NCBI GenBank assembly: GCA_016699995.1
Contig: CP064996.1
Span: 837,747 to 901,746 of the forward strand
Reading direction: 5' to 3'
Source of the DNA: a bacterium
GTDB lineage: Bacteria; Patescibacteriota; Doudnabacteria; UBA920
DNA length: 64,000 bases
Part shown: in pieces, positions 22,533-32,631 of the stretch
Numbering within the stretch: the stretch's first letter is position 1
How the letters are laid out: each line of letters begins with the position of its first letter
Position numbers and translations under genes: made by a program
The notes under the pieces: generated by a model
Told to the model about the DNA's origin: nothing
The model's input: only the letters and a program-made list of their open reading frames with translations
The model's database searches: none

Positions 22533-22929
22533 TTGGCGGTGTTTTCTGGACGAAGTTCGAACATTTTTTGAGCAAAACCCCCAATAAGGAAGCCAGCCCC
22601 GCCACTGCTCGGAAACCTCGCCACACCACAGAAAAATACTCTTTGCTCTTTTCATTTTGCGCGCGCCCGATTTCTTTTTCTTCTAATGAAAAGAGTATTT
22701 TTCTGCGGTGTTCTGCCTTCCAAGTATTCAGGCAGGTGGCGGGGCTGTCCTCAATTTGATTTCGAAAAGAAAAAGCGGAATTCCCCCCAAACCCCCCTTC
22801 CGCTTTTTCTTTTCTCAAACGGAACGGGAACGGAAGCAGGCGGGCAAAAATTCCTTCCCCCCAACCCCCTTCCTTTTTGCCCGCCTGCTTGGGCTTCGCC
22901 CCCAAAACTTTTCGGCGGGACGGCGGGAC
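22533..22929. repeat. IR1-L: 397-bp GC-rich structured repeat, inverted copy of 30380..30776
   Basis: Base-by-base comparison: reverse complement matches the 30380..30776 copy with about 3 mismatches; nested palindromes and C-tract loops. Confidence 0.9.
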
Positions 22930-31017: not shown

Positions 31018-32631
31018 ATGGACAACATAAATTTACAAACCAAAAAGTTTTTCCTCTATGCGAGAAAATCCACGGACGAACCAGAGCGTCAAATTCTTTC
31101 CATTGAGGCGCAACTTTTTGAATTGCGGGAATATGCCAGAAAAGAGGGTTTGAATATCGTCCGTGAATTTTTGGAAAGCAAAACCGCCAAAGAGCCAGGC
31201 AGAGAAATTTTTAACGAAATGATCTCGCGCATAGAGGAAAATGAAGCCGAGGGAATTTTAGCGTGGCACCCCGACCGCCTTGCTCGCAATTCCATAGACG
31301 GCGGACGGATAATTTACTTGGTAGATACTGGTAAAATATCCGCGCTAAAATTTCCGACTTTTTGGTTTGATCCGACACCGCAGGGAAAATTTATGTTGTC
31401 CATCGCTTTTGGGCAATCAAAATATTATGTGGATAATCTTTCGGAAAATATAAAGAGGGGTATTCGCCAGAAACTTAGAAATGGAATATGGCCCGCTTGG
31501 GCTCCACTTGGCTATATAAACGACAAGAATGCTCGTTGTATTGCGGTTGATAAAGAAAAGGCGAAATATATCAAGCGGGCTTTTGAAATGTATGCAACTG
31601 GCGAATATCCCCTTGCTCAAATCCGAAAGATTATCAATTCCTTGGGCTTGGTTGGCAAGAAAGGCAAGATGCTTTCCGTCTCAAATTATCAGTATATGCT
31701 CAAAAATCCGATTTACTACGGAATTATCGAATACAACGGCGAAATGTATGACGGAAAGCACGAACCGATTATCACAAAGAAACTTTTTGATTCCGTTCAA
31801 GAAGTGATGATGAGAAAGAGTAAACCGAAAACGCCAAAATTGAAACCCTATGTGTATAGAGGATTTTTCCGTTGCGGAGAGTGCGGTTGTTTCATCACGA
31901 CCGAAACACAGAAAGGACATAATTATTTGCGTTGCACCAAACGGAAAAATCCTTGTACTCAAAAATATGTTCGCGAGGAAATCATCACTTCTCAAATAAA
32001 AGAGGAAATCAAAAAAGTTTCTTTATCTTCCGCTTGGGCGAACGCTTCAATAGAATTTTTTGAAAACGAGAAATTAAAAACCGCCCAAGCGGAAAGCTCT
32101 TTCGCCCAAGAATTGCGAGATGAGCTTGTAGAAATTGAAACAAAACTTGATCGCTTGCTTGATTTACAGTTGGCAGGCAGTTTGTCGCAAACGGAGTATG
32201 CCACCAAGAAGCACAAGCTCATTCTCGCAAAAAAGGATTTAGAAGAAAAAATCTCGTCTTTTGGGCGAAAGAGCAATAATCGGTTCGAACTTGCCATTAA
32301 CTTCATAAAAGAAGCCAACCAAGCCGAAAAATGCGCTCAACAAGAAAATCCCGAAAGGATTCGGGATTTTCTAAAAAAGATTGGTTCGAACTTCCGCATT
32401 GCCGACCGCACTTTGTTTTTGGATTTCAAAAATGCCTTCAAAATTGCGGAAAAATACCATGCCGAGGCGCTTTGCGCCGAGGCAATTCCTTACGATTTCA
32501 CAAAAAGTGAAAATTGGCGGAGAGGCAGGGATTCGAACCCTGGGTACCCTTGCGAGCACATCGCATTTCGAGTGCGACCCATTCGACCACTCTGGCACCT
32601 CTCCAAATTTTTTAACGATCCGCCTCCATAA
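31018..32631 (+). CDS. large serine recombinase (resolvase catalytic domain, recombinase domain, zinc ribbon, coiled coil)
   Basis: 537 aa; N-terminal YARKSTDEPERQILSIEAQ; zinc ribbon CGECGC..C..C; last ~45 codons lie inside IR2-R and ORF reads into tRNA-Ser on opposite strand. Confidence 0.9.
   Translation: MDNINLQTKKFFLYARKSTDEPERQILSIEAQLFELREYARKEGLNIVREFLESKTAKEPGREIFNEMISRIEENEAEGILAWHPDRLARNSIDGGRIIYLVDTGKISALKFPTFWFDPTPQGKFMLSIAFGQSKYYVDNLSENIKRGIRQKLRNGIWPAWAPLGYINDKNARCIAVDKEKAKYIKRAFEMYATGEYPLAQIRKIINSLGLVGKKGKMLSVSNYQYMLKNPIYYGIIEYNGEMYDGKHEPIITKKLFDSVQEVMMRKSKPKTPKLKPYVYRGFFRCGECGCFITTETQKGHNYLRCTKRKNPCTQKYVREEIITSQIKEEIKKVSLSSAWANASIEFFENEKLKTAQAESSFAQELRDELVEIETKLDRLLDLQLAGSLSQTEYATKKHKLILAKKDLEEKISSFGRKSNNRFELAINFIKEANQAEKCAQQENPERIRDFLKKIGSNFRIADRTLFLDFKNAFKIAEKYHAEALCAEAIPYDFTKSENWRRGRDSNPGYPCEHIAFRVRPIRPLWHLSKFFNDPPP
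32387..32520. repeat. IR2-R: 134-bp repeat at recombinase 3' end, ending at the 3' terminus of tRNA-Ser
   Basis: Inverted copy of 30770..30903; terminal GGCGG on plus strand is the complement of the tRNA-Ser 3' end. Confidence 0.85.
32515..32604 (-). tRNA. tRNA-Ser (anticodon CGA)
   Basis: 90 nt; long variable arm; anticodon stem TCGCA/TGCGA, loop CUCGAAA; T-loop GGTTCGAATCC; discriminator G; CCA encoded. Confidence 0.85.

Follow-up and report, generated by a model that had tools for sequence, protein, structure and literature searches.

The window analysed here is a stretch of 64,000 nucleotides (nt) from a bacterium of the Patescibacteriota (GTDB lineage Doudnabacteria, UBA920; assembly GCA_016699995.1, contig CP064996.1, positions 837,747 to 901,746 of the forward strand). 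Within it lies a genuine integrative defence island with clear limits, built from known parts. The best explanation for the region 22533-32514 (~9.98 kb) as a whole is an island that was integrated by a large serine recombinase and that combines a backbone with a cargo providing two layers of defence; we put the probability of this reading at about 0.78. As suggested by the logic of the junctions and by comparison with related elements, the recombinase would have inserted the island at the 3' end of tRNA-Ser(CGA), by a crossover within CCGCC(AA) that regenerated the tRNA. The backbone would consist of an XRE-type helix-turn-helix (HTH) gene at the head of the cargo operon, an inverted copy, inside the island, of the region of the element's own attachment site (attP), and the recombinase gene. 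This internal copy, composed of a 397-nt unit (X) and a 134-nt unit (Y), would create both pairs of inverted repeats found in the island. The initial annotation, made from the sequence alone, had described an integrated defence island beside a large serine recombinase at tRNA-Ser, and the attachment-type junctions, the recombinase domains and the layout of the element family all bear this out.

Probable attachment-site junctions and inverted repeats

The repeat finder placed the arms of X at 22533-22929 and 30380-30776, with 99% complementarity and mismatches at three positions (22830/30479, 22770/30539 and 22751/30558); the left arm starts on the final base of the stop codon of the ATPase gene that ends the cargo operon. 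These are the 397-bp near-identical inverted repeats, with the coordinates, that the initial annotation had reported as flanking the operon exactly. They do bracket its four genes but are not simple flanks: they belong to an inverted copy of the attP region that also includes a second repeat, missed initially. The arms of this second repeat, Y, at 30770-30903 and 32387-32520, are 134 nt long and 100% identical; they bracket the recombinase gene, and the left one abuts the right arm of X with a 7-nt overlap. ORFs (open reading frames) that mechanically cross X and Y are of low complexity and have no Pfam match, and therefore the repeats are non-coding and are not copies of hsdS. The left arm of X is palindrome-rich, and its outer ~47 nt have the appearance of a P-type half-site; the right arm of X would be the P arm of the internal attP copy. 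The left arm of Y, an inverted copy of the 3' end of the recombinase gene, would be the P' arm, whereas the right arm encodes residues 457-501 of the recombinase.

Three junctions read from the sequence share the core CCGCCAA. The first, tRNA-Ser..CTCTCCGCCA|A-Y, joins the 3' end of the tRNA gene to Y at 32514-32520 (minus strand), within the right arm of Y. The second, X..ACACCGCCA|A-Y, is internal (30770-30776, plus strand); the same junction lies upstream of the recombinase gene in related loci L096, L097 and L098 and occurs ~39 times among the matches listed from the scan described below. The third, X..ACACCGCCA|AAGACATTTATG, at 22533-22539 (minus strand), abuts the start of a DUF1801 gene (ATG at 22524-22522), and junctions of the same X..ACCGCC|host-flank type are found in L089 and in the second element of L096. 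We read tRNA|Y as attL, X|DUF1801 as attR and the internal X|Y as an intact inverted attP, because the three junctions share the core and swap their flanks as expected for recombination between attP (X|Y) and attB (tRNA-Ser|DUF1801). On this interpretation of the sequence, the oddity of the island is that one intact inverted attP stays inside it. An additional feature fits the assignment: counted from the core, the motif GTTCGAA lies at positions 18-24 of X but at positions 13-19 of the tRNA in every element compared. This offset matches the published 5-bp shift between attP and attB sites of serine integrases, in which the motif bound by the zinc ribbon domain lies 5 bp nearer the centre in attB than in attP (PMC3783163), and thus supports the reading of these sequences as attachment sites. 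In the right-hand arms, a weak match to the motif, shifted by 4 nt, was seen by eye and was not counted as support.

The presumed integration target, tRNA-Ser(CGA) at 32515-32604 on the minus strand, is intact (ARAGORN; Rfam tRNA model, 57.2 bits). The recombinase gene (31018-32631, plus strand; 537 amino acids, aa) crosses the attL core and runs on antisense through the tRNA gene. The overlap on opposite strands was noted initially as one of 3' ends; in fact, the ORF spans the entire tRNA gene, and its final 37 codons are antisense tRNA plus flank. Because Y is antisense to the recombinase 3' end, the ORF in the attP configuration would stop 17 codons past the core (..SENWRCFLDEVRTFFEQNPQ*). 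Homologues of the recombinase are 501-580 aa long and diverge after the core. In profile searches, the domains Resolvase (PF00239), Recombinase (PF07508) and Zn_ribbon_recom (PF13408) all scored above the Pfam cutoff, with weak NCBIfam matches to CcrB and XisF; the nearest solved chains are those of the A118 integrase (4kis and 6dnw).

The cargo has a GC content of 37.3%, compared with 42.6% in the flanks. X shows strong predicted folding on both strands (z -3.4 and -5.3), which follows from its palindromes, and Rfam detected no structured RNA within the island at gathering thresholds. X also contains a 47-nt hairpin (30424-30470 and 22839-22885) with a stem of 12 bp (GGCGGGCAAAAA/TTTTTGCCCGCC) and a G-rich loop, a mirror repeat of 23 nt. 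Its sequence is the same, without a single difference, in 37 copies from 28 related loci that have otherwise diverged; relative to the attachment-site arm, 7 copies are oriented as in the window and 24 in the opposite direction. A terminator, a protein-binding site and a transfer origin are among the possibilities for this hairpin.

The element family in related loci

Scanning metagenome contigs with a degenerate pattern for the end of X yielded at least 120 loci, and the counts of junctions, targets, isomers and HTH neighbours given here and below are drawn from the matches listed; loci with L numbers are those fetched for comparison with the window. Elements arranged as X'–cargo–X·Y–rec–Y'|tRNA-Ser are also present in L089, L096 (two of them), L097, L098, L118, L148, L152, L178 and others, and recombinase homologues with 86-93% identity sit in loci of the same layout. 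L096 carries its two elements at tRNA-Ser(TGA) and tRNA-Ser(GCT), L097 carries one at tRNA-Ser(GCT) and L098 one at tRNA-Ser(CGA); each of the three loci has its own recombinase-bracketing repeat (127-134 nt, 98.5-100% identical), and X|Y precedes the recombinase gene. Both pairs of repeats are present together in L118, L148, L152 and L178, as well as in the second element of L096. In the census, X|Y was followed by a forward recombinase gene in 22 cases and by a reversed one in 4, and 13 matches contained only a fragment with the X|Y junction; X was joined to other sequence, mostly host-like flanks, in 76 cases, and 10 matches were at contig ends. The tRNA-Ser targets were GCT (9), CGA (4), GGA (4) and TGA (2). 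The family is abundant in metagenomes as well as among uncultured bacteria with small genomes, which are probably of the Patescibacteria (candidate phyla radiation) type.

Equivalents of Y, 92-147 nt long, flank the recombinase gene in 17 other elements and are at least 97.8% identical in 12 of these (13 of 18 with the window included). Unusual conservation of the duplicated Y segment between elements was considered and rejected, given that Y is ~87% identical between elements (0.87) compared to 0.90 for the rest of the recombinase gene; thus, the identity within elements points to concerted evolution rather than to a family-wide constraint. In L089, both arms carry the same L089-specific 4-nt indel. 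The combination of high identity within elements, ~87% identity between them and this private indel implies that the arms evolve in concert, with ongoing exchange between them; the repeats would thus recombine with each other, keeping the arms alike and flipping the cargo and recombinase segments. Where arms differ (the recombinase-flanking arms of L138, L147 and L148, and the cargo-flanking arms of L148 and L178), the differences concentrate in ~35-60 nt beside the crossover core and match alternative arm alleles of other elements, and the core-distal parts are nearly or fully identical.

Derivatives lacking the recombinase were found as well (L081, L115, L110, L141 and L105). In three of these, X is linked to tRNA-Ser by only ~30-90 nt (L110 9146-9233, L141 1691-1775, L105 4054-4090), and in this link two stubs of the P' arm, each of a different allele, face each other head to head, with a GCCTCGGCGC..GCGCCGAGGC hairpin at the meeting point. 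The two family members in L096 (775-11596) lie side by side at neighbouring tRNA-Ser genes, one with a DpnII-type restriction system and the other with non-defence cargo, namely, a Na/Ca exchanger, an MFS transporter and a GreA-like protein. In L097, the 5' part of tRNA-Ser(GCT) is present as a perfect 67-nt direct duplicate (2085-2151 and 2376-2442), 225 nt past the intact tRNA, which may be the scar of an earlier event at the same site. In other related elements that were sampled, the cargo includes restriction systems of the Type IIG, Type III and AlwI kinds, along with a helicase and an HNH protein.

The cargo operon

The cargo operon lies on the minus strand and comprises four ORFs separated by gaps of 2, 10 and 4 nt, within the 2-10 nt range reported initially; the initial domain calls (an XRE-type HTH, an HsdR-like protein, an HsdM fused to one target-recognition domain and a PHP-ABC ATPase) agree with Pfam, PADLOC, and fold and structure searches.

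The first gene (29995-30204, minus strand) encodes a 69-aa HTH protein of the XRE family (Pfam HTH_3, 5.8e-17; PADLOC Control_protein, 4.3e-12). Its homologues sit beside X at no fewer than 33 X-ends; copies that are 97-98.6% identical precede different cargo in L149 and L152, and in the second element of L096 a homologous HTH leads the GreA, MFS and Na/Ca-exchanger genes. Because near-identical HTH proteins lead different cargo, and a homologous one even non-restriction cargo, the controller role suggested by the initial annotation seems less likely than another: going by these comparisons, the HTH is probably a backbone regulator of the element, divergent from the recombinase across the internal attP. 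The spacer between this gene and the right arm of X (30205-30379), 91% conserved in L089, is associated with two divergent promoter-like sites, which are consensus-pattern matches only (10/12 and 11/12), one at 30292-30264 (minus strand) directed toward the HTH operon and the other at 30198-30226 (plus strand) directed toward X, Y and the recombinase gene.

The restriction module consists of two genes. The 838-aa HsdR-like subunit (27474-29990, minus strand) combines an N-terminal nuclease with a superfamily 2 (SF2) motor (Pfam HSDR_N/HSDR_N_2, ResIII 1.1e-39, Helicase_C; PADLOC REase_I 4.4e-57); the nearest solved chain is the Type I R subunit 3h1t, and the NCBIfam model for EcoAI/FtnUII R subunits gave 250 bits, under its cutoff of 550. 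In the 611-aa protein (25628-27463, minus strand), an HsdM-type N6-adenine methyltransferase is fused to a single target-recognition domain (Pfam N6_Mtase 3.9e-56, Methylase_S 7.7e-23 and HsdM_N; PADLOC MTase_I 4.5e-97 and Specificity_I). The nearest solved chains for this M-S fusion are the Type I M subunits 5ybb and 2okc and the S subunit 1yf2. The Methylase_S domain is present in one copy (residues 445-591), and neither the ORF list nor Pfam contained a separate two-domain HsdS or any other S-like ORF in the island; the module is thus, by its sequence features, a variant of the Type I-like kind, and the fusion would presumably act as a dimer. Type I restriction enzymes cut unmethylated incoming DNA, and the enzyme of the island would do likewise. 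L099 has the same operon of R, M-S and ATPase at ~89% nucleotide identity, and since its target-recognition part (~25609-26522 in the window) fails to align, the difference indicates a swap of specificity.

The last gene of the operon (22929-25625, minus strand) encodes an 898-aa protein with an N-terminal PHP domain and an SMC/Rad50-like ABC head split by a coiled coil, a combination that the initial annotation could not place in a named system. It passes the curated cutoff of the NCBIfam model NF045780, 'TrlF family AAA-like ATPase' (464.5 bits vs. 350), aligning over residues 11-895 with profile positions 2-943 of 944. The best PADLOC match is Ppl, a named single-gene system (E 2.5e-33, in three stretches); with the NCBIfam Ppl model NF042955, the score was 143.1 bits, short of the cutoff of 1000, with a good alignment in the C-terminal part only. 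Pfam detected only the ATPase, with no match to its PHP profile. In the AlphaFold2 model (mean predicted local distance difference test score 86.5), which was searched with Foldseek, the N-terminal domain has two PHP enzymes among its matches, namely RNase AM (9etk; probability 1.00, 320 columns) and DnaE1 (5lew), and the head has MukB, Smc, JetC and Rad50 as its top matches; long helices of the coiled coil span residues 407-659. The alignment shows that the metal-ligand positions of the PHP domain are conserved (DLHVH, E83, H106, D245) and that the Walker A, signature and Walker B motifs are invariant (G342-T350, S783-Q786, D806-E807), so that the protein does have the PHP domain with which it was first credited. 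Taken together, these matches indicate that the protein is a TrlF, a sister of the anti-phage Ppl but not Ppl itself. Ppl is described as a single-gene 3'-5' exonuclease of single-stranded DNA that senses 3'-OH ends and is activated by nucleotide depletion (PMC12904381). By analogy with its sister, TrlF would most likely act after restriction, digesting DNA that has free ends and thereby adding a second layer of defence. Exact-sequence look-ups for the window ATPase and for protein P0001 returned no record, the literature search found no experimental work on TrlF, and a lead to 'rloF' was discarded as this is a GmrSD-type gene unrelated to the 898-aa protein.

Pairing of TrlF with restriction systems

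Close homologues of the window ATPase end different restriction operons. With 94% identity, one ends the same R and M-S operon; with 93%, another ends an operon of an HTH, an EcoRI-like methyltransferase and a GmrSD/HNH gene; and two others, with 94% and 73%, end operons of a PLD-SNF2 helicase and an MmeI-like methyltransferase, with an 11-nt overlap at the ATPase start and a PDDEXK_1 gene next. ATPases with 84-85% identity in L094 and L095 have no recognisable restriction genes beside them. Homology stops at the borders of the ATPase ORF, and none of the at least 120 related X-end loci listed carries TrlF. Distant TrlF genes on plasmids of cultured bacteria (those inspected) are mostly stand-alone, in defence-like neighbourhoods. 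As homology ends at the ORF borders and the partners differ, the TrlF gene appears to be a separable cassette that has joined several restriction operons, without partner-specific divergence; the initial treatment of restriction and PHP-ABC protein as one combination is, accordingly, replaced by a modular pairing rather than a fixed four-gene system. We conclude that the operon carries two defence layers in one transcript, and a synergy whereby restriction makes ends from which TrlF degrades DNA is plausible by analogy with Ppl.

An alternative is that the four genes form one obligate system, with TrlF as a subunit or effector that is, for example, loaded or activated by the DNA ends that restriction makes. 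The intergenic gaps of only 2-10 nt would fit such a system, as would the 11-nt overlap of the ATPase start with the upstream methyltransferase gene in the relatives, the fact that the ATPase gene directly follows a restriction module with a methyltransferase in 6 of the 7 distinct contexts, and weak PADLOC matches of the methyltransferase and the ATPase to mad2 and mad3 of MADS. However, ATPases that are 93-94% identical lie next to three unrelated restriction chemistries, so that there is no partner-specific co-evolution; moreover, L094 and L095 carry the ATPase without recognisable restriction genes, the distant TrlF genes mostly stand alone, and the related elements have restriction cargo without TrlF. 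We therefore regard a single obligate system as rather unlikely and prefer the separable cassette.

The operon in which the PLD-SNF2 helicase (~1095 aa), the MmeI/Eco57I-type methyltransferase (~1060-1094 aa), the TrlF-like ATPase and PDDEXK_1 follow each other is conserved between L092 (3443-13439) and L224 (1551-11436), with genes that overlap or nearly abut; the L224 copy is located beside an AbiEi/AbiEii pair.

Orientation isomers

The initial annotation had called the cassette possibly invertible, and at the level of the family this proved apt, as the cargo and recombinase segments are found among relatives in each of the four orientations that they can take to one another. The window type, with the HTH beside X inside and a forward recombinase gene outside, was found 11 times; the cargo 3' end beside X was combined with a forward recombinase gene in 4 cases (L107, L159, L222 and L223) and with a reversed one in 2 (L138 and L175), and the HTH beside X was combined with a reversed recombinase gene once (L146). 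The occurrence of all four combinations suggests that both bracketed segments flip, at least over evolutionary time. Because the arms are symmetric, inversion alters no junction sequence, and because the best promoter-like site of the operon (30292-30264) lies inside the cargo segment, the repeats do not appear to be an on/off switch for the restriction operon.

The repeats could still be a programmed switch of expression: for example, inversion catalysed by the recombinase or by RecA would put the recombinase gene either downstream of the tRNA-Ser promoter, where it is ON, or convergent with that promoter, where it is OFF; the internal attP could also act as an operator by which the recombinase controls the divergent promoters. 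All four isomers exist in nature, and in 4 of 30 cases among the matches listed the recombinase gene points the same way as the tRNA; the internal attP is placed precisely between the recombinase gene and the divergent promoter-like sites, and the repeat architecture is conserved across recombinase genes that are just 67% identical in nucleotides. Against these observations stand the lack of a demonstrated mixture of isomers within one sample, the junctions that inversion leaves as they were, the location of the operon's candidate promoter within the flipped segment, and the behaviour of serine integrases, for which recombination of attP with attL or attR is not known (PMC3783163). We consider such a switch unlikely. 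Also doubtful, to a similar degree, is a broader proposal that joins these ideas, in which the internal attP would be a working part of an undescribed serine-integrase design: a circle with two inverted attP sites would integrate in either orientation into any tRNA-Ser gene, the repeats would flip the recombinase gene between antisense (OFF) and downstream of the tRNA promoter (ON), and TrlF would be triggered by ends from the co-transcribed restriction enzyme.

An inverted repeat that brackets a Type I-like operon beside a recombinase might suggest a phase-variable Type I system in which the repeats shuffle hsdS modules, but such a shufflon is contradicted by the non-coding arms, without a Pfam match on the crossing ORFs, by the lone target-recognition domain fused to the methyltransferase, with no second hsdS copy, and by the presence of the same repeats around non-Type I, even non-defence, cargo elsewhere, which leaves it highly improbable. 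Equally remote is an assembly artefact: the window does come from a metagenome-assembled genome, but the same double-repeat layout, with element-specific arms, is seen in many independent assemblies of different projects.

Evidence that weighs against the integrated-island reading

Several results count against the reading of the region as an island integrated by its recombinase, with a backbone and two defence layers. The empty tRNA-Ser|DUF1801 site, predicted to read ..CCTCTCCGCC|AAAGACATTTATGC.., was not found: the pattern CCTCTCCGCCAAAGACATTTATGC had 0 matches in metagenome contigs, and a scan of genome contigs with the DUF1801 neighbour identified relatives that were at best 54% identical and came from other phyla, with no close relative of the host and no empty site. 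Nor was a circular form detected, as none of the fetched loci has a terminal overlap. No recombination directionality factor is evident in the island, and there is no obvious candidate but the HTH, although no test aimed at such factors was made; these factors are too diverse for recognition by sequence. The mobility of the window copy is, therefore, unproven. A canonical serine-integrase element requires only one attP, so that the conserved internal attP is a feature without a demonstrated role. Simple gene conversion does not explain why the differing recombinase-flanking arms in L138, L147 and L148 vary mostly in the ~35 nt beside the core. With respect to the cargo, TrlF begins 2 nt after, or overlaps, restriction-operon genes in 6 of 7 distinct contexts, and such tight placement could reflect a closer functional coupling than expected of a separable add-on. 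Finally, the suggested mechanism of TrlF is extrapolated from Ppl, the model of which the 898-aa protein fails.

Two further searches were negative: no match and no synteny emerged when the flanks in the window were compared by BLAST with every fetched locus, and the X-end pattern had 0 matches in viral contigs.

In the integrated island, the internal attP has several candidate roles: the excised circle would bear two inverted attP sites and might integrate either way; recombinase binding between the divergent promoters might provide autoregulation; a flip might expose the recombinase gene to read-through from the tRNA; and the arms might serve as homology for cargo exchange.

Other features of the window

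Outside the island, Rfam identified a group I catalytic intron at 45185-45417 (plus strand; 56.9 bits, gathering score 50), which starts 38 nt past tRNA-Val(TAC) (45070-45146). ARAGORN also reported a tRNA without an assigned identity, whose anticodon has four bases (cgtc), at 51942-52015 (plus strand), for which the Rfam tRNA model was silent at the gathering threshold.

Significance and comparison with known systems

The literature search returned nothing relevant on Patescibacteria with large serine recombinases or on restriction islands that a serine recombinase has placed at tRNA-Ser. In the searchable literature, two features of the island appear to be undescribed: the conserved internal inverted attP with flipping modules, and a TrlF cassette that has repeatedly been added to the ends of restriction operons. 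Uncultured small-genome bacteria are thought to be poor in mobile elements and in tools. The family described here is compact (~3-10 kb) and abundant, and with a defined recombinase, a predicted attP of 50-60 bp and an attB in tRNA-Ser, it offers a candidate integrase/site pair; it also appears to carry restriction systems between such genomes. The conserved internal attP and the four isomers raise a question of directionality control, namely, why an integrated element retains a live attP. The repeated presence of TrlF cassettes at the ends of unrelated restriction operons is suggestive of cooperation between a Ppl-like, end-dependent exonuclease and restriction.

The window protein shares its full-length architecture, a PHP domain and an ABC head split by a coiled coil, with TrlF (NF045780) and Ppl (NF042955; PADLOC PDLC02208). 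It differs from Ppl in failing the Ppl model (143 bits, cutoff 1000), and from other TrlF proteins in context, since the window gene and its close relatives are translationally linked to the ends of restriction operons, whereas the plasmid TrlF genes inspected are mostly alone. With Type I restriction-modification systems of the EcoKI, EcoAI and StySJI type, the island has in common the HsdR-like nuclease and SF2 motor, the gamma-class N6-adenine HsdM and the HsdS-type domain; unlike these systems, it lacks a separate two-domain HsdS, has one such domain fused to HsdM, and encodes an R subunit that scores under the EcoAI-family cutoff. The HTH resembles the controller of C-protein-regulated restriction systems (PADLOC 4.3e-12), yet near-identical HTH proteins precede other cargo.

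Among elements mobilised by large serine recombinases (phage A118, Bxb1 and phiC31 integrases, SCCmec CcrAB, Tn4451 TnpX), the domain triad, the short core, the 5-bp motif offset and the location of the gene beside the attachment site are shared features; by contrast, the island targets the 3' end of tRNA-Ser and keeps an inverted attP, so that recombinase and cargo are each bracketed by repeats. The yeast 2-micron plasmid, in which FLP/FRT operates inside 599-bp inverted repeats, offers an analogy: in the predicted circle, two inverted target sites would likewise part a small recombinase segment from a large one and yield flipping isomers. The differences are that the window recombinase is of the serine rather than the tyrosine type, that the island has no replication gene and that the circle is predicted only. 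PrrC and RloC are restriction-linked second-line effectors embedded in Type I loci, and the island likewise places a non-restriction defence ATPase/nuclease inside a restriction operon; the families are unrelated, the window protein being a PHP and SMC-like protein and not an anticodon nuclease, and the likeness rests on gene placement.

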